This document shows positions 8,434-22,038 of a stretch of 57,273 nucleotides of DNA, in pieces. Under the pieces are notes generated by a model. It saw only the letters and a list, made by a program, of their open reading frames with translations. It did no database searches and had not been told where the DNA came from. A program made the translations under genes and the position numbers. How positions within the stretch are numbered: the first letter of the stretch is position 1; every line of letters begins with the position of its first letter. Source of the DNA: an archaeon (lineage in GTDB: Archaea; EX4484-52; GLR71); the NCBI GenBank assembly GCA_013138805.1, contig WTCA01000015.1, forward strand, positions 1 to 57,273. Direction: 5' to 3'.

Positions 8434-8673
8434 ATGGTACATAGATTCAGGTCTGATGCACAGCGAAAGGCTGTGATGGGTAATTTTAGATCAAGATTAC
8501 CTAGGGTGGTTGTAGGAAAACATAAAGGGATTAAAGTTAGGCTTAGGTATCCTTCTGAGATGGCAGGCTATATAACCTATACTTTTGCATCCATATCGGA
8601 AGCCAATAGATATTTAGATAGTGGTTGGGTAAGTGACTGGGCTAAAAGGCGGGCAAAGATTACTAGATTATGA
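8434..8673 (+). CDS. Leader-B family protein
   Basis: N-terminus MVHRFRSDAQRKAVMGNF. 79 aa. Confidence 0.8.
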   Translation: MVHRFRSDAQRKAVMGNFRSRLPRVVVGKHKGIKVRLRYPSEMAGYITYTFASISEANRYLDSGWVSDWAKRRAKITRL

Positions 8674-8685
8674 TAAGGGGATTAT

Positions 8686-9189
8686 ATGGCGACAAGATTC
8701 ATGACTAAAGGCAAGGGCAATGGACGTAAAGTCATCCCTCTGAAGGACAGGGCATCTGTCGGGGTTAACCGACATGCTGTTAAGATACATCCTAATAATA
8801 TATCTAAGAATATATTTATATTCGGGGGTAAAGATAAAGATGGTAAAGAGATCATATATCATCTAAAAGATATGTTCTCTCCTGATGCTGTAGATATCGC
8901 AGACAGTTATCATAAGGATATTACTGGTATGGATAGGAATTTTGGTTGGGATTCTTCTGCGAGTGCGACAAAAGAATCTATATCTAGCTATTTTCCAGAT
9001 GGTGTCAGGTTTGTATCTATACCCAAAGATTATAAAGCTAAACCACATAAAAGGGATATCCTTGATGATATCATAGTATATGAATCTGGTGAGATGACTC
9101 CTGCTGAAGAATTAGCATTCTTTAAGAAGAATAAAGATATACTATCTAAGTTACAAGGACATTACGGTAGGCGTATAAGTCGTATGTGA
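8686..9189 (+). CDS. Leader-A family protein
   Basis: N-terminus MATRFMTKGKGNGRKVIPLKD. 167 aa. Confidence 0.8.
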   Translation: MATRFMTKGKGNGRKVIPLKDRASVGVNRHAVKIHPNNISKNIFIFGGKDKDGKEIIYHLKDMFSPDAVDIADSYHKDITGMDRNFGWDSSASATKESISSYFPDGVRFVSIPKDYKAKPHKRDILDDIIVYESGEMTPAEELAFFKKNKDILSKLQGHYGRRISRM

Positions 9190-9194
9190 TACTC

Positions 9195-9545
9195 ATGACA
9201 ACAAGATTCATAACAAAAGGCAAAGGTGCAGGCAGGAGAGTTATCCCTATATCTGCTTCTGTCTCTAATACTGCGCTGGCACGGGTATATAAAGAGATGG
9301 ACAAGACCTTTAAGGTAGGTAAGGAAGATGCATCACTGTATGTACATCTGAACCTTCGTAATGGAGAAGATATTGTATTGGATATCCCTAAAGAAAAGGT
9401 TGCGAAGCTATTGGCGGATATGGATACAGGTAAGTCTAAGAATGTTCTGATATTTGATGATGACTGTGCAGTCAGGATTGCAGATATAGTATCTATACAA
9501 GTAGATGATGCTGAAATGAGTGCTATAAGCCGACCTGAAGATTGA
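9195..9545 (+). CDS. Leader-A family protein
   Basis: Track ORF 9186..9545. The ATG at 9195 gives MTTRFITKGKGAGRRVIPIS. GTGATACTC precedes the ATG, as at 9569. Confidence 0.8.
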   Translation: MTTRFITKGKGAGRRVIPISASVSNTALARVYKEMDKTFKVGKEDASLYVHLNLRNGEDIVLDIPKEKVAKLLADMDTGKSKNVLIFDDDCAVRIADIVSIQVDDAEMSAISRPED

Positions 9546-9568
9546 TTGCATACTGTAAGGTGATACTC

Positions 9569-9970
9569 ATGACGACTAGATTTATGACCCAAGGCAGAGG
9601 TGCTGGCAGGAAAGTCATACCTATGAAAGGAATAGGCAATGGTTCAGTACTGCTTAAAGACATAAAGATTGATATGAGATCAGTCAAGCCTATGTCTGAG
9701 GCAGAGCAACTGTCCCGTATACGTGAACTGGTGAAGGTTCCCAAAGATAAGGATAAGCTTTGGGTCATATATGGTCAGAAAGATATGAAAAGACAGATCA
9801 ATCAGTCAGATGTATTCTTTATAGATTTCTATTTAGGAAAAGATGGTGCAAATAGATTATATACCACATATAAAGATAAGTTGCTTAAGAAATATGGTTA
9901 TGAGAGTGTAGGGGTGGCTAGAATGTTTAATTTCTATAACCCTAGATCACGTAAGTCAAAATATTTTTAG
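9569..9970 (+). CDS. Leader-A family protein
   Basis: Track ORF 9542..9970. The ATG at 9569 gives MTTRFMTQGRGAGRKVIPMKG. SD is AAGGTGA. Confidence 0.8.
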   Translation: MTTRFMTQGRGAGRKVIPMKGIGNGSVLLKDIKIDMRSVKPMSEAEQLSRIRELVKVPKDKDKLWVIYGQKDMKRQINQSDVFFIDFYLGKDGANRLYTTYKDKLLKKYGYESVGVARMFNFYNPRSRKSKYF

Positions 9971-9996
9971 TAAGCAGATGATATAGATATATTTTT

Positions 9997-10014
9997 CATG
10001 CTATCTTATAAACA
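9997..10014 (+). promoter_or_regulatory. recurrent promoter motif CATGCTATCTTATAAACA
   Basis: Exact 18-mer 34 nt upstream of the ATG at 10048. The promoter, 5' UTR and leader (about 115 bp) are duplicated at 12842-12957. Confidence 0.65.
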
Positions 10015-10047
10015 GCCTGATGCATATATCTGGTAGGGATAATCATC

Positions 10048-10617
10048 ATGACGACAGGATTCATGACAAAAGGCAGGGGTGCAGGCAGGAAAGTCATACC
10101 TATGAAAGACAGACCTGAGACTGTCGGGAAAGTCAGGGTCAAGCCTGCAACTGCCAGCCAGAGATTGATGGAAAGCATACATAAGACATGTAACGTCAGG
10201 TCTGCAGATGACCTGTATCCACATAGTGACATTTCACCTAACATGCGTATGGATAAAGATAGCGTAACTGCATATGTCAAGGATGTCAGGAAACCTATTG
10301 ATCCTCCTCATGTCCTAAAGAGGTTTCTGGATAGCATGTTCAAGAGATCTACATCCATCACAGACTTTGAGCCTGTGCCCAGATCAGTCCATCCTGAGGC
10401 TGATGCATTGATGCTGATCAATTCTGATGGCGACAGGACATTCATAGATAAGAGATACCTGAGACATGTCAAGGCTGTATTGGGTGATGATGTATATGTC
10501 CAGTTTGCAGAGAGCGATGCGCCCGTCTTCTTCGTGGACAGGAAGGACAGGGATGCTATCTTGATAGCTCCTATATTTTCTGAGGCACTGAGAAGCTATA
10601 TGTTCTCAAAGATGTAA
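10048..10617 (+). CDS. Leader-A family protein
   Basis: MTTGFMTKGRGAGRKVIPMKD. 189 aa. Confidence 0.8.
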   Translation: MTTGFMTKGRGAGRKVIPMKDRPETVGKVRVKPATASQRLMESIHKTCNVRSADDLYPHSDISPNMRMDKDSVTAYVKDVRKPIDPPHVLKRFLDSMFKRSTSITDFEPVPRSVHPEADALMLINSDGDRTFIDKRYLRHVKAVLGDDVYVQFAESDAPVFFVDRKDRDAILIAPIFSEALRSYMFSKM

Positions 10618-10625
10618 TGATCGAT

Positions 10626-10976
10626 ATGGTACGAAGATTCAAGTCTGAGGCACAGCGCAAGGCTGTCATGAGCAAGATATCCGAAAAAGAGAGTCCGTCA
10701 TATATACCTATATTTAAGAAGGCTCTTGCTGAACATATCAGACAGAAAAAGAAGATTATAGCTGTAGTACGTAGCTCTGATGTACGGGATATGCTGGTTG
10801 AAAATATATTGCATACACCTGAGATGCAAGCTCTCATAAATGAAGATTTTGTACGGATTGAATATCAGGAATCAGATGGTCGGGTGTTCCGTGAATCTAT
10901 ACCACGGAGGCTTTTGTCTAGGACGACTGATGAGTTGATTGATTCAGGCGCAAAGTATGTCGATGTAATTAGGTGA
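10626..10976 (+). CDS. Leader-B family protein
   Basis: Track ORF 10617..10976. The ATG at 10626 gives MVRRFKSEAQRKAVMSKI. Confidence 0.8.
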   Translation: MVRRFKSEAQRKAVMSKISEKESPSYIPIFKKALAEHIRQKKKIIAVVRSSDVRDMLVENILHTPEMQALINEDFVRIEYQESDGRVFRESIPRRLLSRTTDELIDSGAKYVDVIR

Positions 10977-10981
10977 TCATC

Positions 10982-11323
10982 ATGGTATTCAAGTCTCCAG
11001 CACAACGGAAAGCTGTCATGGTCAAGCTTAAAGGCACCCGCAAGCAGAGATTGGTTGAGAGACATCTGGACAACGGTGACATAGGCTCTGCATTCGCAGA
11101 GATCATGACGCAGGCTGGGCTCAGGGACAAGAAGGCAAGAGGCATAGTGTCATCCACAGTGTTCGGCAGGGTACCTCTGGAATATCTGGACGACACCACC
11201 AGAGACTCTGCGATCAAGGGTGTCTGGAACGGTACCAACAAGCAGATGATGGCAAAGAACACAGCTAACATAGTCATCAATGAGGCTATAGCCAAGCCCA
11301 AGCCGAAAGTAAAGAAAAAATAA
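10982..11323 (+). CDS. Leader-B family protein
   Basis: Track ORF 10973..11323. The ATG at 10982 gives MVFKSPAQRKAVMVKL. SD is AGGTGA. Confidence 0.8.
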   Translation: MVFKSPAQRKAVMVKLKGTRKQRLVERHLDNGDIGSAFAEIMTQAGLRDKKARGIVSSTVFGRVPLEYLDDTTRDSAIKGVWNGTNKQMMAKNTANIVINEAIAKPKPKVKKK

Positions 11324-11334
11324 AGGTGATGATA

Positions 11335-11988
11335 ATGGTACTGAGATCTCATGTCAATATGATGCTTGCACTGGTGGTCATGCTGGTGTCCATGTCAGGC
11401 ACCAGCCTTGCATATGTTGAGCTTCTGGATTACAGCTCGTCACCGCTCATGACAGGGCACACCCTCATCCTTGTCGTGCATCAGTTCACTTTAGGATACC
11501 AGCTGTATACCAATGAGACTATAGACAACTGCACCGTCGACTACGCATATATGATATATGAGCCGTATAAGCTGACGCCGTTGACGTTCATAAGATATGA
11601 CACTGTCGTCACTGTCCTGAACAAGACTGACGTCATAGCAGACAATGTCACGTGGAACTACATAACTGTCACCCTGCCCGTCAAGGACGAGGCAGAGTCA
11701 CGGTACATAGCTGATCTTGTATGCACGGACAGCTCAGGGGACTATGTCGAGCTGGGCTGTGTATCTGGATGCCTGTTGCCTGAGACTGACGGCGTGCACA
11801 TATATGACTATACAGAACGTGAGACCACTTTCAAGAACGTGATTGCAGGGTCTGGTCTGGGCGAGATCCCTGCTGGGTTCGTGCTGGGTCTGTCTGAGAA
11901 CGTGTCGATAACCGAGGCAGTCATGCTTCTCATCATACTGGCTGTCCTGTCCACCACTGTCGTGGTAGTCAATAAGATATTTAAATAG
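11335..11988 (+). CDS. secreted protein with GLTEN-type C-terminal anchor module
   Basis: Track ORF 11326..11988. Signal peptide ends ...SGTSLAYV. C-terminus is GLGEIPAGFVLGLSENVSITEAVMLLIILAVLSTTVVVVNKIFK. Confidence 0.75.
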   Translation: MVLRSHVNMMLALVVMLVSMSGTSLAYVELLDYSSSPLMTGHTLILVVHQFTLGYQLYTNETIDNCTVDYAYMIYEPYKLTPLTFIRYDTVVTVLNKTDVIADNVTWNYITVTLPVKDEAESRYIADLVCTDSSGDYVELGCVSGCLLPETDGVHIYDYTERETTFKNVIAGSGLGEIPAGFVLGLSENVSITEAVMLLIILAVLSTTVVVVNKIFK

Positions 11989-11994
11989 CATCTG

Positions 11995-12027
11995 ATCAGT
12001 GACATATCAGTGACTGATCAGCGACTG
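11995..12027 (+). repeat. 3 x 11-bp tandem repeat ATCAG(T/C)GAC(AT/TG)
   Basis: Units at 11995, 12006 and 12017, directly after the stop of 11335..11988. Confidence 0.7.
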
Positions 12028-12046
12028 TTTCTTCTGACCTCATAAA

Positions 12047-12057
12047 GACTTATAAAG
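12047..12057 (+). promoter_or_regulatory. TATA-like box GACTTATAAAG
   Basis: Same core as at 43-51. Upstream of 12137..12553. Confidence 0.35.
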
Positions 12058-12136
12058 TTATCATTGCTAAGATTTAATACAAAGTATCATTTAGTGTTCA
12101 CTGAACATATAATGATACTTGATTGAGATTGATAAT

Positions 12137-12553
12137 ATGAGAAAGAAAGTAACCACAGACATGCTTGTAGATAAGTTGCAGGCACAGTACGATGGCATGG
12201 GTCTGACCTTGCGTGAGCTGGGATCACTGCAACCATCCAAGAACCTGTCGCTGGACAGCATACCTGAATGGGGTAGGCGAAGGTTTGAGGTATGGTGCAG
12301 GATATACAATGAAGGCGGTTCTGTCTCGTTTGACAGGTTCAAGGAGATATGCATCAAGGCAGGATACAGCACTGCTGACGGTGACGGCGGACTCAAGACC
12401 AAAGGTATAGGCGGTCTGTTCTCAGGCGGAAAGAATGCTAGGATACAGTGGGGTGCCAACGGGTCTGATGTGTTCCTGACAGGCTCTGTCAAGGGCTATG
12501 TCGAGGCTTGGACTGGCTTCACCATGGATGAGGTTGCAGGGCTGTTCAAGTAG
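12137..12553 (+). CDS. hypothetical protein (no leader) inside the leader-gene array
   Basis: Track ORF 12119..12553 (TTG). The first ATG at 12137 gives MRKKVTTDML.... 138 aa. Confidence 0.6.
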   Translation: MRKKVTTDMLVDKLQAQYDGMGLTLRELGSLQPSKNLSLDSIPEWGRRRFEVWCRIYNEGGSVSFDRFKEICIKAGYSTADGDGGLKTKGIGGLFSGGKNARIQWGANGSDVFLTGSVKGYVEAWTGFTMDEVAGLFK

Positions 12554-12604
12554 TCCAGCCTAGCTTCATCTTCATCTTCATATTCATCTTTATCTTTTCT
12601 TTTA

Positions 12605-12631
12605 GGGGATTTTTTGTTTATCCCTCCCTTT
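12605..12631 (+). terminator. weak hairpin plus T-tracts (archaeal oligo-T terminator-like)
   Basis: GGGAT-TTTTTGTTT-ATCCC followed by TCCCTTTTTTT, downstream of 12553. Confidence 0.35.
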
Positions 12632-12841
12632 TTTTATAATCCATATTAGAGATATTGAAGCGTTTAGGTGTAGCTGATGAAAAAGATGATGACTAAATGA
12701 AAGGAAGATCCCTATGGTTCTAGAGATGACCCGAACAGGCACCGTAATAGGTTGGAGACTGCAAGGGCAGAGATAAAGAGAAAGTACAGGGATACAGGGC
12801 ATTGGGACTGCTGATGATATGGAAGATGCTGAGATCCATCT

Positions 12842-12859
12842 CATGCTATCTTATAAACA
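12842..12859 (+). promoter_or_regulatory. recurrent promoter motif CATGCTATCTTATAAACA
   Basis: Exact 18-mer 34 nt upstream of the ATG at 12893. Confidence 0.65.
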
Positions 12860-12892
12860 GACCTATGCATATATCTGGTATAGATGATTATC

Positions 12893-13357
12893 ATGGCGAC
12901 TAGATTCATGACCAAAGGCAAGGGTGCAGGCAGGAAAGTCATACCTATGAAAGACAGCGATGCTACCTTGAAACTTAAAATGCCTAAAAAGGTTACACCA
13001 GCAGATATTAAGTCAAGTAAAGATATCTATGTTTTGCAGGATAAGATCAACAGCCTGATATTCGATAGGCAGAAAGGTGCAGTCGACCCAGAGATGCTAC
13101 GGATAGTCATCCTGAATGAGAAAGCATATCATTTCAGGTTCCTGAAAGGGTATACTAAATGGAAAGCCATAGGTACATGGGAGACATATCCTGATGAGAC
13201 CAATACGGTGATAGAGATCATGTACAGAGATACAGAAGATGAAAGAGTAGGCATAGAATTAGTCAAGTTATTAGAGCAGTACAATGAACTTACATCTAAG
13301 GAAGATAAATTATTTGTTGCTACATATCCTATTGAAGAGACTAGCCTGTATACATAG
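12893..13357 (+). CDS. Leader-A family protein
   Basis: Track ORF 12884..13357. The ATG at 12893 gives MATRFMTKGKGAGRKVIPMKD. Confidence 0.8.
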   Translation: MATRFMTKGKGAGRKVIPMKDSDATLKLKMPKKVTPADIKSSKDIYVLQDKINSLIFDRQKGAVDPEMLRIVILNEKAYHFRFLKGYTKWKAIGTWETYPDETNTVIEIMYRDTEDERVGIELVKLLEQYNELTSKEDKLFVATYPIEETSLYT

Positions 13358-13418
13358 ATGCATCAAGATTATTGATATATGATCAAAAGATCAGATATAA
13401 AAAAGATAAGTGATTATC

Positions 13419-14192
13419 ATGGCGACTAGATTCATGACCAAAGGCAAGGGTGATGGCAGGAAGGTCATACCTCTCAAAGGCAGGGCATCTGTCAAGGCTC
13501 CTAAGAACATGGTGCCTAAGTACAGCAAGTTACAGAAGGCTATACTGTCCCTGATGGTCGAGGATACCGGTGCTAACCTATTGGATTCAGGCGGTGCATA
13601 CGGCAGGCACTATGAACGTAACCAGCAGGTCAAGGACTGGACAGCTGTTAAGGATCTCAGCTTTGATGAATTTGGATATACACGTAACCTGTTTCCGTTC
13701 TTGGTACAACAGCTGGATATCAATCCTGAAAGCCAGAAGTTGCAGGGACAGTTTGACAGGATGTCTGCCAAGTCTGACGAGCCGTACCTGAGCGACATGG
13801 AACAGTTCTTGGAGAAGCTGGCTAAGGATGGTAGGCTGGAATCAGATGATTACTTGGTCACTGAAAAACCTACTGTGATCAATACTTACAATGCAGAGTC
13901 TGCACTGTCACAGATACTGCAATATGCCCTGTTCATGGTTGACGGTGAATATTATGTCATATTGCAGGTGCACAACGGCTGTGATGCAAGGGGTGGGTAT
14001 ACCAAGCCTAAGATATTTGCAGTGCCTGACCCTGAATCTTTTATAATCCGTCAGAACGATGCCGATGTCACCACAAAGAAAGGTACATATACGACTGATG
14101 ATACATATAATTTCTATCCTGAGTCAGGTATCTCTGGTGAGCCTAAGCAGTGGGAAGACCTGTGGAAAGAGGGTATAGTGAGGATTAATTGA
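13419..14192 (+). CDS. Leader-A family protein
   Basis: Track ORF 13410..14192. The ATG at 13419 gives MATRFMTKGKGDGRKVIPLKG. The body contains LLDSGGAYGRHYERNQ and HNGCDARGGYTKP motifs. Confidence 0.8.
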   Translation: MATRFMTKGKGDGRKVIPLKGRASVKAPKNMVPKYSKLQKAILSLMVEDTGANLLDSGGAYGRHYERNQQVKDWTAVKDLSFDEFGYTRNLFPFLVQQLDINPESQKLQGQFDRMSAKSDEPYLSDMEQFLEKLAKDGRLESDDYLVTEKPTVINTYNAESALSQILQYALFMVDGEYYVILQVHNGCDARGGYTKPKIFAVPDPESFIIRQNDADVTTKKGTYTTDDTYNFYPESGISGEPKQWEDLWKEGIVRIN

Positions 14193-14193
14193 T

Positions 14194-14967
14194 ATGACAG
14201 CAAGCTTTATCACGAGAGGCAGGGGTGCAGGCAGGAAAGTCATACCTATAGGTATAGGTATACGCAAGCCTGTGGTTGTCAGGTATGAAGGGCTGGGAAG
14301 GGTGGCTCCGTCTAAGGCATATCTTACAGATATCGTAAAAGATGATACGGAACTGGAATACCTGAGCGATATCCATGATGATATGCAGTTCATCAATAAG
14401 ATGCGAAACCTTAAGTCAAGAGTGGTCAAGGCTATAGGACAGTCTGAGTATGATAGATGGATCAAGCTGTACAATGACATTGACTCTGGAGCTTTTGACT
14501 TTGATGAGTATGTCAGGCGTAATAAGGTGCACATATCTCTCTGGAGACATATACGTCACATGAGCGATATCGAGAAGTTTGAGGCAGTGCTAAAGCATAA
14601 GAGATATAGTCCTGATATAATAAGTGATTTTACTGCTATGTATCATTACGATTTCGGGTATCATGACTTGGACGGTGTCTCACGGCTTAAGTTTTTTCAT
14701 GTCGCAAAGCTTGTATATCCGGCAGTCAGGAAATATCTTGATACTGATCTGATAGATGAGGAACCTCAATATTATTATATATCAGGCAAGCGTAGAGAAA
14801 TGTTGCATGAAAAGTTCCTAAGAGAATACAATAATAAATATGGAAACAGGGACGGGTACCAGAGAGTTGAACTGGATGCCAGTGTAGGTACCAAAGAAGG
14901 AGAACCTCCAGAAGATGAGTTTGATGCATCTTTATATGCAGGCGCTATAGCTGGAGGAGCTATCTGA
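14194..14967 (+). CDS. Leader-A family protein (body paralogous to 21275..22015 and 24001..24702)
   Basis: MTASFITRGRGAGRKVIPIG. The body aligns with the two other copies (for example DRWIKLYNDIDSGAFDFDEY vs SGWVKLMCDIDDGSFDADSF). Confidence 0.8.
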   Translation: MTASFITRGRGAGRKVIPIGIGIRKPVVVRYEGLGRVAPSKAYLTDIVKDDTELEYLSDIHDDMQFINKMRNLKSRVVKAIGQSEYDRWIKLYNDIDSGAFDFDEYVRRNKVHISLWRHIRHMSDIEKFEAVLKHKRYSPDIISDFTAMYHYDFGYHDLDGVSRLKFFHVAKLVYPAVRKYLDTDLIDEEPQYYYISGKRREMLHEKFLREYNNKYGNRDGYQRVELDASVGTKEGEPPEDEFDASLYAGAIAGGAI

Positions 14968-14986
14968 ATAATATATGTGAGTACCA

Positions 14987-15775
14987 ATGATTAAAAGATT
15001 CATTACAAAAGGAAAAGGCAAGAGCAGGAAAGTCATACCGCTCAACGATGGAGGGGCTGGTGCCAAGGTGCCTGCAAAACGGTCTGTGAAAGCGGAAGAC
15101 TATACGGATTACAAGACGTCTAAAAGATACCTTGAGAACAAGCTGTCTGATGAGGGCGGTGACCTGTTAGGGAACCATTGGTCTATAGGTCGTACCTTTA
15201 CAGGCATCAAGTTAACCTTAGGCAATATGACCACTGCAGGCTGGTATTGGGTGGGTGAGGCTAAAGACATGGCAGGGTTTCTTGTCCGTATCATAGGTTC
15301 TAGGGTGCGCAAAGAGTTCATAGAGACCATGCGCAGGAACAATGTGGATTTCAGGAAAGTCAAGGGTGTTATGCTAAAGTCAATCTCTGAAGGTGACGGT
15401 CTGTACGAGATGACAGGCGATACTTTAAGATGGAAGTTCGGTACCACTATGCCAGAGGTTGATGAAGATACAGACTTTGATGATTTTGCGCAGGACAGAG
15501 ATGTCACGTTGACTGACGAGTTCAAGGATGAGGTCAGGGACAGGTATTATCCAGACATGCCTGACTATGATCATGTCAAGAAAAGATACATGGCAAGGTA
15601 CAAGGAAGAGATGAGAGAGGCAGTCATGGACTCTGGGTCATTTGAGGAGTTTACGGGCAAGGTGGCTGACATCCAGAAATCATTTGACTATGATATCATT
15701 GAAGATCTCAGCGAGACCATGGGTGCAGGGTTCAGGTCTGTGATGTTTGCTGTGGCAAAAGAGAGGAATATGTGA
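14987..15775 (+). CDS. Leader-A family protein
   Basis: MIKRFITKGKGKSRKVIPLND. 262 aa. Confidence 0.8.
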   Translation: MIKRFITKGKGKSRKVIPLNDGGAGAKVPAKRSVKAEDYTDYKTSKRYLENKLSDEGGDLLGNHWSIGRTFTGIKLTLGNMTTAGWYWVGEAKDMAGFLVRIIGSRVRKEFIETMRRNNVDFRKVKGVMLKSISEGDGLYEMTGDTLRWKFGTTMPEVDEDTDFDDFAQDRDVTLTDEFKDEVRDRYYPDMPDYDHVKKRYMARYKEEMREAVMDSGSFEEFTGKVADIQKSFDYDIIEDLSETMGAGFRSVMFAVAKERNM

Positions 15776-15785
15776 TGTGGTATAT

Positions 15786-16301
15786 ATGGTGAAGACAAGA
15801 TTCATTACGAAAGGCAAGGGTGCTGGTAAGAAAGTAATTCCGCTTAGGAGCATGGCTATATCTCAGGGTAAGAAAAATATATTCAGTAAAGATACTACTG
15901 CCAAAGAACTTCGTATATTTGTCAAGAGTAAGGTAGTGACCCAAGGTCGTAAGGCTGGAATGTCATATTCCTCATTTGATAAAGATGAACAGGTAACTCT
16001 TATGTCAATGGGCGTGACACCATTCTCTTATGTTTCAGTGGTCACGGATGACATGTTTCAGGCTAAGTTGCATAGGCTTGTTGACATGTTCTGGTCTGAT
16101 TCACACAGTGCATTCAAGGATGCATATGATATGTATATAGAGAGGCTACCTATATCAGATAACGCTAAGGAATGGTTCAAGGAAGACACTGTCCTGCAGG
16201 GGAATTTTGAAGAAGGTGCAAGAGATACATATGATATTGAGCAGGATATCATAGACCATTTTCCTGAGATGAAGAAAGTGTCTATGCAACTAAAAAAGTG
16301 A
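15786..16301 (+). CDS. Leader-A family protein
   Basis: Track ORF 15747..16301. The ATG at 15786 gives MVKTRFITKGKGAGKKVIPLRS. Confidence 0.8.
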   Translation: MVKTRFITKGKGAGKKVIPLRSMAISQGKKNIFSKDTTAKELRIFVKSKVVTQGRKAGMSYSSFDKDEQVTLMSMGVTPFSYVSVVTDDMFQAKLHRLVDMFWSDSHSAFKDAYDMYIERLPISDNAKEWFKEDTVLQGNFEEGARDTYDIEQDIIDHFPEMKKVSMQLKK

Positions 16302-16313
16302 TATGTGATATAT

Positions 16314-16829
16314 ATGGTGAAGACAAGATTCATGACAAAAGGCAGGGGTGCAGGACGTAAAGTTATACCTATGAAAGACCGACCTATGGCTGGCAAGGTC
16401 AATGTCAAGGTCAAGATAGACCCTAAGATGCAACTGCTAAAAAATATCAGGAAACGTAACGTCATAACTGAGCAGGAGCTTGGTCTGGTGATGGGACGGT
16501 TGAATAGCAAGGCATACGCTGTCGGTCAGGTCACAGAGATGATAGGGGATGAAGGTCTGGAGCTGACACCTGAACAGTCTCGGAAAGGTTACGGTTACCT
16601 GATGAACCAATGGAAAAGCCCTAAGACTGGTATGGAACGCAAGAACAATCCGTTTGGGTACATTGAACAGGAGATACTCAAGGATTTTGATAGGTTCTGC
16701 CTGAAAGATACATTTGATGCAGGCACAATTAATTTCAGTCATCATATCCCTATATATAAAGTATACTCAAAAATCTATGGATCATTTGAGTATCATATGG
16801 CTGGTGGCAAGGTCAATATCATAGGGTGA
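16314..16829 (+). CDS. Leader-A family protein
   Basis: Track ORF 16305..16829. The ATG at 16314 gives MVKTRFMTKGRGAGRKVIPMKD. Confidence 0.8.
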   Translation: MVKTRFMTKGRGAGRKVIPMKDRPMAGKVNVKVKIDPKMQLLKNIRKRNVITEQELGLVMGRLNSKAYAVGQVTEMIGDEGLELTPEQSRKGYGYLMNQWKSPKTGMERKNNPFGYIEQEILKDFDRFCLKDTFDAGTINFSHHIPIYKVYSKIYGSFEYHMAGGKVNIIG

Positions 16830-16834
16830 ATATC

Positions 16835-17242
16835 ATGACTAGATTCATAACGAAAGGCAGGGGTACTGGCAGGAAAGTCATACCTATCAAAGACAGGAAC
16901 AAGGCTGTCAAGTTCAGTATGGATGATGATGAGCTTGAGAGACCGTCTTTCAAGGACAGGTACCTGCGCAGTCTCAGGGACGATGCCAAGACCATGACAA
17001 CATCTGACCTGCAAGGCGTGGTGGGTGCAAAAGTGCACAGTCTGGCTGATGAGCAAGGCATTGTCCTCAAGGTGCCATTGCAGGCAGAGCTGGAAGACAT
17101 AATGCTCCAGTACGCATATGGTGAGATGGACATCAACTCAGCCCAGAGATTCATGACTGATATAATCATGAAAGCGGACAAGATACCTATCCAGTCAGGA
17201 GATGACAGGGCTAATTATGTATCTGAAGATGGATTATTTTAG
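16835..17242 (+). CDS. Leader-A family protein
   Basis: Track ORF 16826..17242. The ATG at 16835 gives MTRFITKGRGTGRKVIPIKD. Confidence 0.8.
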   Translation: MTRFITKGRGTGRKVIPIKDRNKAVKFSMDDDELERPSFKDRYLRSLRDDAKTMTTSDLQGVVGAKVHSLADEQGIVLKVPLQAELEDIMLQYAYGEMDINSAQRFMTDIIMKADKIPIQSGDDRANYVSEDGLF

Positions 17243-17257
17243 GGAGATGACTGTAAT

Positions 17258-17530
17258 ATGATAACTAAATTCATTACGAAAGGAAAAGGTAAGAGCATGA
17301 AATTTATATCTATAAGAGCTATATTGCTTCTGTTTATTATATGTGGGTCTGTTTTATGTACCATAACTCCTTCAGCTTATGCCTCTGTCGATGATACTAA
17401 GGTCATAGGCGAAATTCCTGCAGGGTTTATTTTGGGTCTGACTGAGAATATCACAATACCTATAGTTATACAACTATTTATTGTAGCTTTTGTGGGGTCT
17501 GTATTATTGATACTTATAATGAAGTTATGA
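17258..17530 (+). CDS. hybrid mini-protein: degenerate leader A + signal peptide + GLTEN anchor module
   Basis: MITKFITKGKGKSMKFISIRAILLLFIICGSVLCTITPSAYA / SVDDTKVIGEIPAGFILGLTENITIPIVIQLFIVAFVGSVLLILIMKL. Confidence 0.75.
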   Translation: MITKFITKGKGKSMKFISIRAILLLFIICGSVLCTITPSAYASVDDTKVIGEIPAGFILGLTENITIPIVIQLFIVAFVGSVLLILIMKL

Positions 17531-17547
17531 ATGGATATGAGGATATT

Positions 17548-18297
17548 ATGACGACAAGGTTCATTACTAAGGGCAAAGGGCAGAGCAGGAAATTCATACC
17601 GCTCAATGACAAGGTGGCAAAGCCTAAGCTAAGTGCCAAGACCAGAAGTCTGATGAAGAGTCCGTTGGCTGACACATTCGACATTGACGTGGTCAAGGCA
17701 GTCACTGATGAGGTAGGTGCAGTCAAGTCTGTTGATGATGAGGGCAAGTTCTGGACGGTCACGACTGAGGACGGCAAGGAATACATGCTGTTTGAGGATA
17801 AAGACTTAGCCAAAGACTTTGCGGTGGAGAGAGTGGCAGATGACCTGAGCGACCAGCCTGAGCTGTTCACCCGTGACTGGCTGATGTCTCATGTTAATGA
17901 GGACGGGTTGCGAGACAGTCTAAGGGCTGATGAAGAGAACATGAATAGGGATTATGTCAATGAGATTGAGGATGAGGAAGATGCTGAGCATGGGACTAGA
18001 CTGAAAGCTGAGCTTATAGAGAGAGGTATCATAAGTGAGGATGCTGATGTCACAGACGAAGTCAAGGAAGATATGGTCGGTCAGATGACGGATGAACGTC
18101 TTGAAGACCCGATGGCTTATCTTGATGAGCTAGGGTATGAGGGTGAGAGACTCATGGATATCCTGACACCTCACATAGACCTTGATGAGGCTTCTGAGGA
18201 TGCAGTAGATACTGATGGTATGGCTCATTTCCTTGCCACCTATGACGGCGAGCAGGTGGACACTGCGACTGAGCATGTACTGTTCAGACAGAATTAG
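17548..18297 (+). CDS. Leader-A family protein (acidic body paralogous to leaderless 22536..23072)
   Basis: Track ORF 17527..18297. The ATG at 17548 gives MTTRFITKGKGQSRKFIPLND. Confidence 0.8.
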   Translation: MTTRFITKGKGQSRKFIPLNDKVAKPKLSAKTRSLMKSPLADTFDIDVVKAVTDEVGAVKSVDDEGKFWTVTTEDGKEYMLFEDKDLAKDFAVERVADDLSDQPELFTRDWLMSHVNEDGLRDSLRADEENMNRDYVNEIEDEEDAEHGTRLKAELIERGIISEDADVTDEVKEDMVGQMTDERLEDPMAYLDELGYEGERLMDILTPHIDLDEASEDAVDTDGMAHFLATYDGEQVDTATEHVLFRQN

Positions 18298-18310
18298 GAT
18301 TTGATTATGT

Positions 18311-18727
18311 ATGACGACGACAAGATTCATGACTAAGGGACGAGGAGCATCACGCAAGGTGATACCTCTTAAGTACGGTACTGCCGTCCAGAGATATAAG
18401 AGACAGAAAGCTGTGGTCTCAGGAGACATAGAACATCTCAAGACCAATAAGGCTAAGCTCATCTCTGAGCTGGGCACTGCAAAGACACATATGATGGATG
18501 TCATGAAAGATACAGGGCATACCCTCAGACTGCTTAGGCTGGATGCTGTGCAGTTGCGGGATACCAATAAGATGGTAGTCATAGCAAAAGTTCAGAAAGG
18601 CAATGATGTGTACCATCACGTCATCGATGACGTTGTCCTGAAAGAGAAGATGCTTGCAGACGATTTTCATAGGCTCATAGAATCCATAAAGTCTAAGTAC
18701 CATAAGACCATAGAGATCTGGAGATGA
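18311..18727 (+). CDS. Leader-A family protein
   Basis: MTTTRFMTKGRGASRKVIPLKY. 138 aa. Confidence 0.8.
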   Translation: MTTTRFMTKGRGASRKVIPLKYGTAVQRYKRQKAVVSGDIEHLKTNKAKLISELGTAKTHMMDVMKDTGHTLRLLRLDAVQLRDTNKMVVIAKVQKGNDVYHHVIDDVVLKEKMLADDFHRLIESIKSKYHKTIEIWR

Positions 18728-18732
18728 TTTGA

Positions 18733-19479
18733 ATGACGAGATTCATAACAGTCACGGGTAAGGCTGGCAGACGGGCAGTGCCGATAGACGGCAAGAAGAG
18801 TTCGGTATGTCCAATCAATATAGTGCCTTCAGGGATGCGTAATCTCAAGAGTGCGGTGACCAAATATCATGAGGGCAGGCTCAATGAAGCACTCAAGAAG
18901 ATAGAGACTGCCGACGGTCTCAAGAATGAGATGGGGTATGAGGGCAAGAAATATGCCGGTGACGATGATGCTGTAAGGGTTAAATTTACCAGATACCTGC
19001 AGACTGCACATGATAAGAAGATAGCTGAAGACATGGATAGGATCAAAGCTGTTGAGGGTGCAGAGGATTTCAAGGATGAGCTTGTCGTGACTGTCGAATG
19101 GAAGAAGAGCAGGATGTGGGGCAATAACCCGACAGCGCATACCAGTGACGGTGACCGGTCTGAAAGCATAGGCGGTTGCGGGTATGATAAGGAGAGCACG
19201 GCGATAGCGCAGGTGCTGAACCAAAACATGCCACTGCTGAAATTGATGTATAGCAGGAAAGACAAGGATCACAGCAGATGGAAAGATTTTGATGATCATA
19301 GTGATTATAACCGCAAGGTGCTGGGCTATGGGTCAGGGTACGGTATACTGCCACAGTTCGAGGGCGGTGTAGGTGTGTCATCGCATCAGAACATAATGAA
19401 GAACATAGGTCTGGAGATGCAACATCTGGTGACTACTGACCGGTCAGATACATATGTGATCAAGAAAGCTGGGAAGTGA
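18733..19479 (+). CDS. Leader-A family protein (degenerate leader)
   Basis: MTRFITVTGKAGRRAVPIDG. The body contains GGCGYDKESTAIAQVLNQ and GYGSGYGILPQFEGGVG motifs. Confidence 0.75.
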   Translation: MTRFITVTGKAGRRAVPIDGKKSSVCPINIVPSGMRNLKSAVTKYHEGRLNEALKKIETADGLKNEMGYEGKKYAGDDDAVRVKFTRYLQTAHDKKIAEDMDRIKAVEGAEDFKDELVVTVEWKKSRMWGNNPTAHTSDGDRSESIGGCGYDKESTAIAQVLNQNMPLLKLMYSRKDKDHSRWKDFDDHSDYNRKVLGYGSGYGILPQFEGGVGVSSHQNIMKNIGLEMQHLVTTDRSDTYVIKKAGK

Positions 19480-19484
19480 TATCT

Positions 19485-19700
19485 ATGGTACGAAAATTCA
19501 GGTCGGATGCACAGCGTAAGGCTGTCATGAGCAAGGTGAAAGATAATATGAATACTGGCTCTAAGAATATAAGTGCTATAACTATAGTGCATGATAAGGT
19601 GATAATGCCTATTAGTGCTGTTGAAGAGCGTGAACGCCTCATAGCTGATGGTTATAAGGTCTTAGAGACTAAGGGCAATGTGGTATATTTATATAAGTGA
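19485..19700 (+). CDS. Leader-B family protein
   Basis: Track ORF 19476..19700. The ATG at 19485 gives MVRKFRSDAQRKAVMSKV. GTGATATCT precedes the ATG, as at 19706. Confidence 0.8.
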   Translation: MVRKFRSDAQRKAVMSKVKDNMNTGSKNISAITIVHDKVIMPISAVEERERLIADGYKVLETKGNVVYLYK

Positions 19701-19705
19701 TATCT

Positions 19706-20125
19706 ATGGTAAGAAAATTCAGGTCGGATGCACAGCGCAAGGCTGTGATGAGCAAGGTCAAGGGCAGGACGGTGACGTTCAGGGTACCTGCCAAGAAGAT
19801 CCCTGAGCATTCTGAACCTATAGATGTTGGCAGGCTGACTTTCGATAAGATGAAGACCATGTCCAGAAAGGCTGGTCTGCACTGGTTCGATAAGGATTCC
19901 ATGAGCTTCTTCAATTCCAAGTTGCATGGGACTGTATTCGTATCTCCCGCCAAGAATGTGTATTTCATATCTTCTGAGACCTTTGAGGAGGACAATCCTG
20001 ACTATCCACGAAAGTATACCATCAGGCAGTTCAATCCCAGAGACGGTTCAGTCAGTGAAGTGGGCGGGTTTCAGGCATATGATACTTTCGGTGATGCAAC
20101 TAAAGATATGGTAAGGTTAGATTGA
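19706..20125 (+). CDS. Leader-B family protein
   Basis: Track ORF 19697..20125. The ATG at 19706 gives MVRKFRSDAQRKAVMSKV. Confidence 0.8.
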   Translation: MVRKFRSDAQRKAVMSKVKGRTVTFRVPAKKIPEHSEPIDVGRLTFDKMKTMSRKAGLHWFDKDSMSFFNSKLHGTVFVSPAKNVYFISSETFEEDNPDYPRKYTIRQFNPRDGSVSEVGGFQAYDTFGDATKDMVRLD

Positions 20126-20126
20126 T

Positions 20127-20579
20127 ATGGTACGAAGATTCATAACTAAAGGCAAGGGCAAGGGCAGGAAAGTCATACCTATATCTGGCAGAGCAACAGA
20201 GGTACCTGTAAAGGTCAAGCCAGACATATTGTCTAAGCCGTTCACTGAAGATATAACTTTATCAGGCAATGACTTCTTTATCGAGTATGATCCTAAGCAT
20301 AAAGGACTGTACCTGACTGAGAGGACAGACTACGTGTCTGGAGAAGATGATGAAGAAGAGATGGATGATTCATCTTATCCATATGAGACTTTTGACTTTG
20401 AACTGGTCAAGGACTCTAAGGTACTGGATAGGTTGATCAGGTCAGAGCTGGAATCGATAGTATCATCCACTGTTGTCGTGGACGGTCAGATACTGCGTGT
20501 GGACTGGTATCCTGAAGGTGAGGTGCTGGTCTTGGTATCTCTGCCTGACAACACAAAATATATATTCAAGGAAGTATAA
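20127..20579 (+). CDS. Leader-A family protein
   Basis: MVRRFITKGKGKGRKVIPISG. Note the MVRRF start, which is shared with leader B. Confidence 0.8.
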   Translation: MVRRFITKGKGKGRKVIPISGRATEVPVKVKPDILSKPFTEDITLSGNDFFIEYDPKHKGLYLTERTDYVSGEDDEEEMDDSSYPYETFDFELVKDSKVLDRLIRSELESIVSSTVVVDGQILRVDWYPEGEVLVLVSLPDNTKYIFKEV

Positions 20580-20598
20580 TAAAAGATAGGTGACCTCT

Positions 20599-21258
20599 AT
20601 GGTACGAAGATTCAAGTCGGATGCACAGCGCAAGGCTGTCATGAGCAAGATAAATGATAGAGGTAGCCCTACCATCAAGTACAGGACACCTAAGAGACAT
20701 CTGGATCTGGATGTCCGTGCGTATGAACTGGGCAACCTGAGAGTGTCCAAGGGCGGTAACTTTGAGAGGTTTCTGGATAATCTGATACGGTATTATAGGT
20801 CTGACAGCAAAGGTTCTGCTGTGCTGAGACTGAACCCATCCCAACGTGAATACATAGATATGAACCTTGATTCCTATGAGCTGGGCAATCTTGAGATATC
20901 TGAGGGCGGTAACTTCAAGAACTGGTTACAGAACCTGATACAGTTTTATATGCGTGACACAGGTCAGGATAAGGAGTACATGAAAGATGTCAAGGAACAG
21001 AGGGTCAGGGTAGAACGTCGCAGGAAGGTTGAGAGAGACATAAGACCTATGCTGGACAGGTTCAAGGAGATGACCGCATCTGCACTAGACCCTGAGCATG
21101 TCAGCGGTGGCGGTCTGACAGTGACTAAGGATGGAGAACTCATAAGCATGTTGCATTACAAAGGAACCCTTATGGAGAAAGAAGCACTGGCGGTGCTGAG
21201 ACCTGCACTGGAGAAGAAGGGGCTGAAGGTCTATGAGGAAGACCTGTGGTATCCATGA
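20599..21258 (+). CDS. Leader-B family protein with internal ~45-aa duplication
   Basis: Track ORF 20590..21258. The ATG at 20599 gives MVRRFKSDAQRKAVMSKI. YELGNLRVSKGGNFERFLDNLIRYY and YELGNLEISEGGNFKNWLQNLIQFY are duplicated. Confidence 0.8.
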   Translation: MVRRFKSDAQRKAVMSKINDRGSPTIKYRTPKRHLDLDVRAYELGNLRVSKGGNFERFLDNLIRYYRSDSKGSAVLRLNPSQREYIDMNLDSYELGNLEISEGGNFKNWLQNLIQFYMRDTGQDKEYMKDVKEQRVRVERRRKVERDIRPMLDRFKEMTASALDPEHVSGGGLTVTKDGELISMLHYKGTLMEKEALAVLRPALEKKGLKVYEEDLWYP

Positions 21259-21274
21259 TATATGATGTTAATAT

Positions 21275-22015
21275 ATGATGAAGGATATGGTTAAGATGAC
21301 AGGTACAAGATTTATCACGAAAGGCAGAGGGACGGGTAGGAAAGTCATACCTATGACCAGCAAGTCCAGATCTAAGGTTCCTGCACTGGACATGTCAGAT
21401 AGGTTCTATTCAATGCCTCAGTATATATTGCACATGACCCTTGATGAAGATGAACGTATATATCTACAGAAACTGCATGAGAATTATCAGCTCCTCAATC
21501 ATCTCAGGTTGGCTAAGAGAGATCTGATAGGTCATATAGGAGATGATACATATTCTGGCTGGGTCAAGCTGATGTGTGACATAGATGACGGCTCCTTTGA
21601 TGCAGATAGTTTCCTTAAGTCCAAAGGTGCATATAGATATCATCTCTTCACAGTATCTGTCGATCATAAGTTCAGGGCTGTGCTCAGGGCACAGGGTGTA
21701 GGGGACAGGTTCATAGATGATTTCCTGTATATCTATGGACGGCATTATAAGTTTGTGGGCATAGATGGACTCAGCTATGATATCAAGTTTCCTCTAGCGC
21801 ATTACGGTGACATGATAATGACATCTATGAAACCTGCATTCAATAAGTATATTGGGATGAGTTCTATATTTTATTTTAGGGATGATGATGATTTTAAAAG
21901 ATATACTGTATTCATTGACTTATCTTTTAAGGACAGATGGAAATCTTTATCTTCAATGATGGATAAAAAGTATCATGAAGCATATAAGGATAAGAAAGGA
22001 TATCTTAAGGTATGA
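21275..22015 (+). CDS. Leader-A family protein (body paralog of 14194 and 24001 genes)
   Basis: MMKDMVKMTGTRFITKGRGTGRKVIPMTS. The start could also be 21287 or 21296. Ends KYHEAYKDKKGYLKV. Confidence 0.8.
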   Translation: MMKDMVKMTGTRFITKGRGTGRKVIPMTSKSRSKVPALDMSDRFYSMPQYILHMTLDEDERIYLQKLHENYQLLNHLRLAKRDLIGHIGDDTYSGWVKLMCDIDDGSFDADSFLKSKGAYRYHLFTVSVDHKFRAVLRAQGVGDRFIDDFLYIYGRHYKFVGIDGLSYDIKFPLAHYGDMIMTSMKPAFNKYIGMSSIFYFRDDDDFKRYTVFIDLSFKDRWKSLSSMMDKKYHEAYKDKKGYLKV

Positions 22016-22038
22016 GCATCAAAGATAGGTGATTTGAT

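Follow-up and report, generated by a model that had tools for sequence, protein, structure and literature searches.

Two families of recombining gene starts in a probable archaeal mobile element encode candidate address tags

Introduction

The internal proteins of bacteriophage T4 are diverse and share only a 10-residue capsid-targeting sequence (CTS). This tag is enough to bring a foreign protein into the head, and it may allow the phage to recruit a varied set of proteins (PMC3012670, PMC9026906). Here we analyse a 57,273-bp contig (44% G+C; WTCA01000015.1 of assembly GCA_013138805.1, taken whole and called the window below), which is probably an uncharacterised, rare mobile element, virus or plasmid, with an archaeal host, and in which 34 genes, all on the + strand, open with one of two short leader peptides, leader A (22 genes) or leader B (12 genes). 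In our judgement it is probable, though by no means certain, that the DNA encoding these leaders forms a set of peptide-selected, recombining start regions that specify interchangeable address tags. By analogy, the T4 CTS appears to be the closest precedent: it too is a short N-terminal peptide that forms the only common feature of diverse, fast-evolving accessory proteins of a mobile element, and Repoila et al. in 1994 reportedly proposed the conserved 5' ends of T-even internal-protein genes as recombination substrates. The leaders, however, have no sequence similarity to the CTS. In addition, T4 has a handful of such genes, one tag and a tag length of 10 residues, whereas here there are 34 tagged genes, two interchangeable tags and 17-20 residues plus a linker; the leaders have no cleavage motif, the host is probably archaeal, and no prohead protease, scaffold or capsid gene was found among the open reading frames (ORFs) scanned. 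These scans covered the 34 leader genes and about 25 non-leader ORFs, including all of more than 400 aa, and most ORFs had no match.

The encapsulation peptides of microcompartments and the cargo peptides of encapsulins use a short terminal peptide and a poorly conserved, disordered linker to bring proteins into a common container (PMC4594438, PMC12339742). As in the window, the cargo is unrelated and is joined through a poorly conserved linker. Encapsulation peptides are, however, amphipathic helices that bind a shell, whereas leader B has no significant helical hydrophobic moment and leader A, as modelled, resembles a two-strand hairpin; no shell or encapsulin families were detected among the window proteins scanned, and encapsulation and cargo peptides are not conserved as DNA repeats, as the leaders are. 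Integrons likewise consist of long co-oriented arrays of small, unrelated, promoterless ORFs with one repeat per ORF, and gain, lose and reorder their cassettes. The integron attC site is an imperfect palindrome at the 3' end, whereas the repeat here is direct, lies 5', and is coding, translated and peptide-selected; no integrase (IntI) family was found among the proteins scanned, which represent part of the ORFs, and exchange here appears to use homologous or illegitimate recombination.

Two further systems combine conserved gene starts with variable products. At the variable lipoprotein loci of Mycoplasma (vsp, vlp), conserved promoter and signal-peptide 5' ends precede divergent tandem genes. 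The near-identical 5' regions of such genes resemble those of the array, and recombination there generates variation; their leaders, however, are Sec/lipoprotein signals on surface antigens, whereas leaders A and B lack a hydrophobic core or lipobox, and the closer analogue within the window is a trio of surface-protein genes on the - strand (43896-48324) rather than the leader array. Polymorphic toxin and effector families (Rhs, CdiA, MuF, LXG, MIX) have conserved N-terminal trafficking domains and variable C-termini. They share with the array an N-terminal routing module, swappable C-terminal modules and recombination at the junction, yet their domains span hundreds of residues and are accompanied by immunity genes, whereas the leaders are of ~20 residues and are followed by no recognisable toxins, with no evident immunity pairing. 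A shared N-terminal tag on diverse accessory proteins and recombining conserved 5' ends are both known in kind; what is new is the use of two interchangeable tags, the scale, the logic of a translated capture handle and the likely archaeal host.

A co-oriented array of leader-tagged genes

The repeats noted in a first-pass annotation of this DNA were placed at positions 9997-12957. They are real, but the phenomenon is far larger, spanning an array at 8434-26754 and a gene at 73 (Table 1). Leader A has the form M-x-T-R-F-I/M-T-K-G-K/R-G-x-G-R-K-V-I-P and leader B the form M-V-R-K-F-R/K-S-D-A/R-Q-R-K-A-V-M. The array holds all of the leader-B genes and 21 of the leader-A genes, the remaining one being that at 73, and its untagged members start at 11335, 12137 and 22536. 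The tagged products, of 71-262 aa, have predicted folded regions. Their bodies are small and mostly ORFans, although a few match DUFs or PHROG families without assigned function, and by BLASTP they are mutually unrelated except for one trio (14194, 21296, 24001; body identity 25-40%). Self-BLAST of the window returned 130 repeat high-scoring segment pairs, 103 of which are leader handles, typically extending from -10 to +64 relative to the ATG. In line with this, nhmmer located leader DNA solely at the starts of + strand ORFs, with no orphan fragments, and a degenerate leader-A DNA pattern had 15 matches in the window against 0 in 100 shuffles. The repeated DNA is best read as the translation-start region (ribosome-binding site and first ~17-20 codons) of the 34 genes, whose codons specify two families of short basic N-terminal peptides, followed by a linker and then by mostly unrelated bodies.

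Leader conservation reflects mainly selection on the peptide

The first-pass annotation missed that it is primarily the peptide that is conserved. Among 19 canonical leader-A copies, nonsynonymous divergence (pN) was 0.135 and synonymous divergence (pS) 0.545 (Nei-Gojobori), giving a pN/pS of ~0.25. The core of leader A over 69 distinct proteins is [RK]-F-[IM]-T-K-G-[RK]-G-x-[GS]-R-K-V-I-P-[LIM], in which the T and both G are invariant and F, I and P nearly so (66-68 of 69 proteins), with the F at residue 5 in 41 proteins. Because of this ratio and of the invariant residues, we regard the peptide as the main conserved entity, and purifying selection on it as the main cause of leader conservation. 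At a net charge of +4 to +6 the leaders are strongly basic, and a variable linker of ~15-25 residues with many K, R, P, S, A and V follows them. Since orthologues of the 12893 protein can do without 4 residues of the Gly-rich middle (TKNK--KVIP), the sequence suggests that leader A is a two-part, hairpin-like motif.

Leader A is rare. An exhaustive profile search for it among 1.84 billion representative proteins gave 51 matches at E <= 0.001, of which 49, from proteins 61-273 aa long, fall within residues 1-30; a word-indexed profile search over 5.8 billion proteins added a single protein and missed members found by the exhaustive search. Neither leader matches Pfam, known phages or archaeal viruses, IMG/VR, GTDB, JGI contigs or the paper text searched. 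Specifically, the degenerate leader-A DNA pattern had 0 matches in IMG/VR, GTDB genomes and JGI metagenomes, a related-locus search with the leader alignment had none, and a tblastn search with the two leader peptides over 50,697 records of phages and archaeal viruses returned no meaningful match. Pfam assigned the peptides to no consistent family, with single weak matches such as Ribosomal_L28 (E = 0.018) on one leader-B member, and literature searches found no paper that contains the leader peptide strings and none on ANME viruses with shared N-termini.

Several familiar classes of short peptide were considered for the leaders and rejected. A Sec signal peptide would require a hydrophobic h-region, and no hydrophobic stretch follows the leader except in the chimeric gene 17258-17530. 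A Tat signal is excluded by the single R, the offset motif, the missing h-region and the lack of a twin-arginine S/T-R-R-x-F-L-K. A PCNA-binding PIP box in leader B has the wrong spacing and lacks an aromatic pair, and an amphipathic-helix encapsulation peptide for the same leader lacks a hydrophobic moment. A KOW-like or AbrB-like hairpin, and a likeness of GRKVIPMKD to the histone L2 loop, were dropped for want of Pfam support. Finally, precursors of ribosomally synthesised and post-translationally modified peptides with a conserved leader (e.g. prochlorosins) do not correspond to full-length products of 71-262 aa, and no modification enzymes were detected in the window.

Leaders are modular and interchangeable in related elements

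We recovered five relatives of the element: E2 (L008 and L002; 56.8-kb contig), E3 (L006, from a 97-kb contig), E4 (L003), E5 (L011, from a 71-kb contig) and E6 (L013). The related contigs come from cold-seep metagenomes of Site F in the South China Sea (PMC9357000). All of E2-E6 carry dense arrays of A- and B-tagged genes, and the six elements together encode ~120 tagged proteins. Among 28 multi-member body families with a leader, 13 carry A only and 6 carry B only, while 5 mix A and B and 4 mix A with leaderless members. For example, the leader-A gene 9569 has an orthologue with leader B in E3, and the leader-B gene 20599 has orthologues with leader A in E3 and E5. The clearest swap concerns a DUF7447 body, which reads MVRKF-RSDAQRKAVMSKVKGR-TVTFRVPAK with leader B in the window and MVRKF-ITKGRGSSRKVIPLKDK-AVTFRVPAK with leader A in E6. 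Protein P0006 and gene 22536 are homologous to tagged bodies but have no leader and start ~40 residues in, so the unit that is added comprises leader plus linker.

The tag reading follows from the leaders being interchangeable, modular and at a fixed distance from Met1, and from the existence of leaderless homologues of the same bodies. Our best guess as to function, by analogy with the systems described above, is that the tags route cargo to a common destination. As address or docking tags, the leaders would direct a large, rapidly changing set of accessory proteins to one partner or place, most likely the transmissible particle of the element or its transfer apparatus, and the proteins would thereby accompany the DNA into the next host. 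As context for this idea, the element that bears the array encodes an ArdC-like anti-restriction/metallopeptidase protein and a phage-type N6-adenine methyltransferase.

The same modularity and interchangeability would equally suit tags that have nothing to do with particle loading, and we give this a real, if minority, chance. Such tags might dock on a host hub (ribosome, nucleic acid, or replication or degradation machinery), mediate non-Sec export, or act as a degron or as a pro-peptide for the ArdC-like peptidase. The strongly basic character of the leaders, the heavy investment of the element in surface proteins, the zincin-like peptidase domain at 31337-32209, which is conserved in relatives, and the fact that no capsid genes were detected in the window ORFs scanned are all in keeping with one or another of these roles. 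Sec and Tat are nonetheless excluded as export routes, the leader is not followed by a conserved cleavage site, Pfam revealed no known hub-binding motif, and the data do not discriminate between the candidate destinations.

Start regions recombine within elements

On top of peptide selection, the ~60-75-bp handles, arranged as direct repeats, recombine with one another, and any ORF landing behind a handle would gain translation signals and a tag. The relatives show the outcome of this exchange: leaders are homogenised within an element, A/B hybrids occur, leaders are replaced or lost, and cassettes are inserted, deleted and reordered. Leaders group with others of their own element rather than with those of orthologous genes. 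Of 49 copies, 31 have their nearest neighbour within their own element (14 expected), the nucleotide distance between leaders is 0.255 within elements and 0.307 between them, and codons for the same amino acid differ at 0.445 within and 0.509 between (permutation p = 1e-4 for both distances). Signature dipeptides point the same way, with AG in the window (9/20) and PG in E5 (9/14). We had entertained AG as proof of conversion and dropped it, since AG is the family-wide consensus, and used the permutation tests and the PG signature of E5 instead.

Hybrid heads are found in both directions. The head of the leader-A gene 20127, ATGGTACGAAGATTC, is a 15-mer identical to those of the leader-B genes 10626 and 20599, while the leader-B genes 25677 and 26464 begin with an A-type M-T-R-F head. 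Leaders A and B both have an M-x-x-[RK]-F head, so their R-F codons offer a crossover point. Cassette order differs among the window, E2 and E3, with few syntenic blocks (e.g. 10982-11335-12137), and none of the relatives recovered has an orthologue of the pair 10048 and 10626. These patterns, together with element-wise clustering and leader swaps, bear out the earlier suggestion of recombination between 5' handles of about this length, with cassette shuffling. The repeat of block 9997-10112 at 12842-12957, which had also been noted, is gapless (Table 1), and beyond its 116 nt the identity falls to random (0.2-0.3) within 20-40 nt on each side, with the 3' edge near codon 22.

Such data leave little room for the view that there has been no ongoing recombination, in which old tandem duplications produced bodies that then diverged past recognition while peptide selection alone held the leader. 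The high average leader pS in the window (0.545) and the one demonstrably paralogous trio, with its low body identity, count in favour of that view. We nevertheless consider it unlikely, given the orthologous bodies with different leader types, the leaderless homologues, the A/B hybrid heads, the sharp-edged block and the grouping of leaders by element rather than by orthologue; moreover, a young leader subgroup with a pS of 0.14-0.25 (genes 10048, 12893, 13419, 16835, 25331, 25961 and 14194) sits on unrelated bodies, and some bodies belong to families that occur elsewhere without a leader (DUF7447, DUF5661, PHROG families).

In E2, a 656-aa DEAD/SNF2 helicase with HNH repeats (L002 2373-4343) separates the conserved 10982-12553 block from the next promoter, at a place where the window has only intergenic DNA (12553-12842). 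The chimeric gene 17258-17530, for a small membrane protein, also points to exchange. It joins a degenerate leader-A head to a signal-like hydrophobic membrane segment and a C-terminal tail consisting of IGEIPAGFILGLTEN plus a transmembrane (TM) segment, this tail being homologous to the C-terminus of the 11335-11988 protein; its orthologue in E5 (L011 2679-2927) has an identical 18 nt upstream plus MMVRKFI in common with the neighbouring leader-A gene (3014).

Silent-site similarity fits recombination better than an RNA or DNA element

Silent positions had been described as conserved beyond what the peptide needs, and this holds in part. For leader A, codon identity at same-amino-acid pairs is 0.584, against 0.384 expected from window codon usage (z = 10) and 0.366 under 5'-end-specific usage (z = 13.6); in leader B, an observed 0.632 compares with an expected 0.43 (z = 5.7). 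Average silent divergence is nonetheless high, as the pS of 0.545 indicates. The string GTCATACCT, reported for V-I-P in at least ten leader-A copies, occurs exactly 10 times, always on the + strand and always as leader-A V-I-P codons. Longer shared strings proved rarer than had been claimed: a leader-A 33-mer attributed to most copies has an exact copy in 2 of 22 genes and a copy with at most 3 mismatches in 6 of 22, and a 41-mer attributed to the leader-B copies is within <=3 mismatches in 3 of 12 only. Among shorter repeats, the promoter 18-mer ATGCTATCTTATAAACAG occurs three times (8384, 9998, 12843), the 5' untranslated region (UTR) 15-mer TGCATATATCTGGTA twice and the candidate G-quadruplex tract GGCAGGGGTGCAGGCAGG three times. 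The silent excess arises partly from a general preference for A-ending codons at gene starts, seen also in the first 20 codons of non-leader genes (AAA 0.41 vs 0.29), and partly from the young leader subgroup. The excess similarity fits recombination.

Comparison of leaders with bodies did not reveal the contrast that had been expected of a DNA-level signal. Between orthologues of the window and E2, pS is 0.62 for leaders and 0.68 for bodies, similar values that are both near saturation, so no strong silent-site constraint is seen across elements. In the paralogous trio leader pS is 0.40-0.61 and body pS 0.67-0.71, for leaders that give just 12-15 synonymous sites. On silent divergence alone the earlier proposal would hardly stand, but breakpoints at leaders are abundant, and the proposal thus passes the test that the first-pass annotation had set for it.

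These measurements also bear on whether a functional RNA or DNA element within the leader, serving translational control or as an antisense target, a G-quadruplex or an enzyme-recognised recombination site, explains the silent conservation. We judge this improbable, although codon identity does exceed the expectation from codon usage, two Lys positions are encoded by AAA in 14 of 17 and 15 of 18 copies from the window (0.30 genome-wide; recurring in E2), and leader-B codons favour a hairpin. When 12 leader regions of 100 nt each, including the Shine-Dalgarno (SD) sequence, were folded and compared with shuffles, 10 gave z between -0.5 and +0.75 and two gave z of about -2, with differing structures and none in common; Rfam had 0 covariance-model matches at the gathering threshold over the whole window, on both strands. 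A motif of four GG runs, which would be needed for the proposed two-tetrad G-quadruplex (G4), is present in 11 of the 20 leader-A copies, where synonymous recodings give 12.3 +/- 1.4, and the three-tetrad GGG-run motif in none; the "G4-prone" tract thus arises as a side effect of encoding Gly and Arg. With leader pS close to body pS, several leader-A columns free to use 3-4 synonymous codons (e.g. Thr = ACT, ACA, ACC, ACG) and the same shift to A-ending early codons in non-leader genes, the suggestion that the RNA or DNA itself has a function finds no footing in these tests.

The leader-B hairpin deserves separate mention. The codons GCA/AGA-CAG-CGN-AAG-GCT-GTN for A/R-Q-R-K-A-V (for example at 19730-19747, 8458-8475 and 22057-22074) could form a hairpin of 4-6 bp, CACAGC/GCUGUG. 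Over 29 copies in four elements, 4.59 of 6 pairs can form, against 3.49 +/- 0.17 in synonymous recodings (0/2000); the signal comes mainly from Ala = GCT and Arg = CGN, and the outer, terminal pair lacks covariation.

Lastly, it is very unlikely that the leaders are cis-acting nascent-chain regulators that exert uniform control over many genes from within the ribosome tunnel, since, for all that the motif lies at a fixed distance from Met1, is conserved at the amino-acid level independently of the body and ends in I-P, leaders A and B are unrelated yet interchangeable, the 4-residue loop deletion is tolerated in orthologues and we know of no precedent for arrest peptides fused to dozens of functional proteins.

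Weighing the address-tag reading

Several points weigh against reading the start regions as peptide-selected, recombining handles that encode address tags. Within-element homogenisation is small in size (0.445 vs 0.509), and family-wide codon preferences (AAA at two Lys positions, GCT for the leader-B Ala) make nucleotide-level constraint possible. No conserved cleavage motif follows leader A, in which no position beyond +17 is informative over the 69 proteins; the AlphaFold model of the 12893 protein draws two short strands at a pLDDT of 52, which is low confidence; and leader B, considered as a helix, has a hydrophobic moment inside the shuffle distribution and is not detectably amphipathic. 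No capsid, portal, terminase, scaffold or prohead protease was found among the ORFs scanned (Pfam, PHROGs, NCBIfam), and 34 cargo species would, to our knowledge, be unprecedented. A lead towards particle routing, given next, is a single match at E = 7e-5.

This lead is P0046 (L012 1637-2212), which contains the only internal leader-A-like match among the 1.84 billion representatives (FFTKGRGASRKVIPLS, residues 71-92). It is encoded between a portal-sized ORF and the scaffold (phrog_4866) and major head (phrog_267, 2e-20) genes of a tailed-virus fragment. This position fits particle routing and is a weak lead.

Taken further, the address-tag reading would make the array an address-label and capture-handle platform, in which an ORF that lands behind a ~60-bp handle receives a ribosome-binding site and a tag and is loaded into a particle or vesicle for co-delivery with the DNA; we put this forward tentatively, as a possibility more apt to fail than to hold. 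An equally speculative corollary is that the platform represents integron-like gene capture via a translated repeat and a functional analogue of the T4 CTS at ~10x scale, in an undescribed cold-seep lineage.

If the tags are address labels, they would represent a new and very compact targeting code, in which two unrelated ~20-residue peptides have the same use, in the setting of methane-seep elements whose hosts are probably uncultured archaea. The ~120 tagged proteins would then be a ready catalogue of candidate co-delivered effectors (anti-defence, host takeover), and the tags might be usable as tools to load cargo into archaeal particles. The translated recombination handle would, in turn, be a clear natural example of a single short repeat that allows gene capture, carries expression signals and routes proteins.

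Promoters and ribosome-binding sites are general to the element

The promoter and SD had been counted as parts of the leader handle, which our data do not support. The box CTTATAAA occurs 11 times, always in intergenic DNA and mostly ~25-90 nt upstream of a gene start, with 6 of the 11 inside ATGCTAYCTTATAAA (Table 1). As it also precedes leaderless genes on both strands and is conserved in E2 and E3, we take it to be the general promoter of the element. The recurrent SD contexts GTGATACTCATG and GTGATATCTATG do each occur twice, but the GTGAT ribosome-binding site is generic and not specific to leaders: GTGA/GGTG-type SDs precede 20 of 34 leader genes and, equally frequently, 21 of 45 non-leader genes. 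Only the pair 10048/12893 has promoter, UTR and leader in common as a single block; this repeat is one recent duplication that happened to take in a promoter. No CTTATAAA box is found between 12850 and 26772 (noted for 13410-26754, with ~27 tightly packed genes), so these ~27 genes may form one very long transcription unit from the 12843 promoter.

Table 1. Coordinates of leaders, promoter elements and repeat blocks in the window. Gene positions are first to last nucleotide.
Feature	Position	Strand	Gene	Remark
Co-oriented array	8434..26754	+		36 genes, 33 tagged: 21 leader A, 12 leader B
Leader A (MKFFTRGKGNSRKIIPV)	73..123	+	73-768	outside array, 7.7 kb away; own TATA-like box 43-50
Leader A	8686..8742	+	8686-9189
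Leader A	9195..9251	+	9195-9545
Leader A	9569..9625	+	9569-9970	E3 orthologue has leader B
Leader A	10048..10104	+	10048-10617	cassette without orthologue in relatives recovered
Leader A	12893..12949	+	12893-13357	body homologue P0006 leaderless; orthologues P0004, P0005 with short leader
Leader A	13419..13475	+	13419-14192
Leader A	14194..14250	+	14194-14967	body paralogous to 21296, 24001
Leader A	14987..15043	+	14987-15775
Leader A	15786..15845	+	15786-16301
Leader A	16314..16373	+	16314-16829
Leader A	16835..16888	+	16835-17242
Degenerate leader A (MITKFITKGKGKSMKFISI)	17258..17314	+	17258-17530	fused to membrane segment; chimeric gene
Leader A	17548..17604	+	17548-18297	leaderless paralogue 22536-23072
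Leader A	18311..18370	+	18311-18727
Divergent leader A (MTRFITVTGKAGRRAVPI)	18733..18786	+	18733-19479	canonical leader in relatives (P0022)
Hybrid leader	20127..20183	+	20127-20579	B-type head ATGGTACGAAGATTC, A-type remainder
Leader A	21296..21355	+	21296-22015
Leader A	24001..24057	+	24001-24702
Short leader-A variant (MTTRFMTKNKRRIPI)	24710..24754	+	24710-24985	Gly-rich loop deleted
Leader A	25331..25387	+	25331-25657
Leader A	25961..26017	+	25961-26449
Leader B	8434..8487	+	8434-8673
Leader B	10626..10679	+	10626-10976
Leader B	10982..11029	+	10982-11323	with two downstream genes, syntenic in E2, E3
Leader B	19485..19538	+	19485-19700	-11 to +55 94% identical to same region of 19706
Leader B	19706..19759	+	19706-20125	DUF7447 body; E6 has same body family also with leader A
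Leader B	20599..20652	+	20599-21258	E3, E5 orthologues with leader A
Leader B (N-D-R-Q-R-K variant)	22039..22086	+	22039-22503
Leader B	23078..23125	+	23078-23611
Leader B	23614..23661	+	23614-23994
Leader B	25035..25088	+	25035-25325
Leader B with A-type head (M-T-R-F; ATGACAAGATTC)	25677..25727	+	25677-25946
Leader B with A-type head	26464..26514	+	26464-26754
Promoter + 5' UTR + leader A block	9997..10112	+	10048-10617	104/116 identical to 12842-12957
Promoter + 5' UTR + leader A block	12842..12957	+	12893-13357	twin of 9997-10112
Promoter 18-mer ATGCTATCTTATAAACAG with TATA-like box CTTATAAA	8384..8401	+		before leader-B gene 8434; kept in L002 4330-4425, 82%
Promoter 18-mer	9998..10015	+		before leader-A gene 10048
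Promoter 18-mer	12843..12860	+		before leader-A gene 12893
CTTATAAA box	43..50	+		before leader-A gene at 73
Generic CTTATAAA box	12049..12056	+		before leaderless gene 12137
Generic CTTATAAA box	26772..26779	+		past array end
Generic CTTATAAA box	30023..30030	+		before leaderless gene 30049
Generic CTTATAAA box	32772..32779	+		intergenic
Generic promoter box GATGCTACCTTATAAA	48359..48366	-	47035-48324	before leaderless surface-protein gene
Generic promoter box	47021..47028	-	45494-46987	before leaderless surface-protein gene
Generic promoter box	45480..45487	-	43896-45446	before leaderless surface-protein gene

Gene content of the window

Genes lie on the + strand up to ~42.4 kb, and large - strand genes occupy 43.9-57.1 kb. 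The promoters resemble archaeal TATA boxes, the ribosome-binding sites are of GGTGA type, and the NCBI labels of window proteins read "hypothetical protein [archaeon]" (NOQ37573.1, NOQ37562.1). Few genes were recognisable in scans with Pfam, PHROGs and NCBIfam, namely those for a GNAT acetyltransferase, an ArdC-N plus zincin-peptidase protein (31337-32209; conserved in relatives), a phage-type N6-adenine methyltransferase, a YopX-like protein, a P-loop NTPase (6682-7947) and a member of a PHROG "topoisomerase" family. No tRNA genes were found in the window and no direct or inverted terminal repeats on the contig, and megablast of the 8-28 kb array against GenBank phages gave no nucleotide match.

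No relatives of the P-loop ATPase at 6682-7947 were found in GTDB, JGI or IMG/VR, and PDB sequence searches with it and with the PHROG "topoisomerase" protein were empty; the AlphaFold model of the ATPase had a pLDDT of 37. The C-terminal third of this protein is a long low-complexity tail with the end KGKPKGKGKSKGKSRK, which resembles the leader-A Gly/Lys loop, and PEPKPKPKPK repeats are common to the tail and to the 515-aa protein of 2432-3979 (7719-7775 and 2576-2667, respectively). Nearby, at 4696-5215 and 7953-8207, several small paralogous genes encode lipoprotein-like products with a lipobox-like SGC and Cys-rich mature parts (MRLYIIAVLICILVISGCTSYDSC...); this family is also present in E2 and E3.

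Within the array, three tandem units of 11-12 nt (CTGATCAGTGAC), with overlapping palindromes, directly follow the stop of gene 11335-11988 (11992-12025), and a 19-nt inverted repeat lies within the 5' UTR of gene 12137 (12082-12120). Before the 12843 promoter, T-rich runs at 12556-12640 resemble an archaeal terminator.

On the - strand, eight genes at 43896-57117 encode secreted proteins with signal peptides, rich in N-x-S/T sequons. Five of the eight end in (E/G)-[LVI]-P-A-G-A-I-L-G-L-T-E-N (one in a looser form), after which come a membrane helix and a basic tail, an arrangement that, from its sequence, resembles a PGF-CTERM/archaeosortase sorting signal. Three of these surface proteins are paralogues (43896-45446, 45494-46987, 47035-48324) whose genes have promoter and signal-peptide 5' ends, and also 3' anchors, in common, with ~90% nucleotide identity between 5' ends (46803-47037 vs 48140-48375). 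By this sequence criterion the trio is a second, separate case of conserved gene ends in the window.

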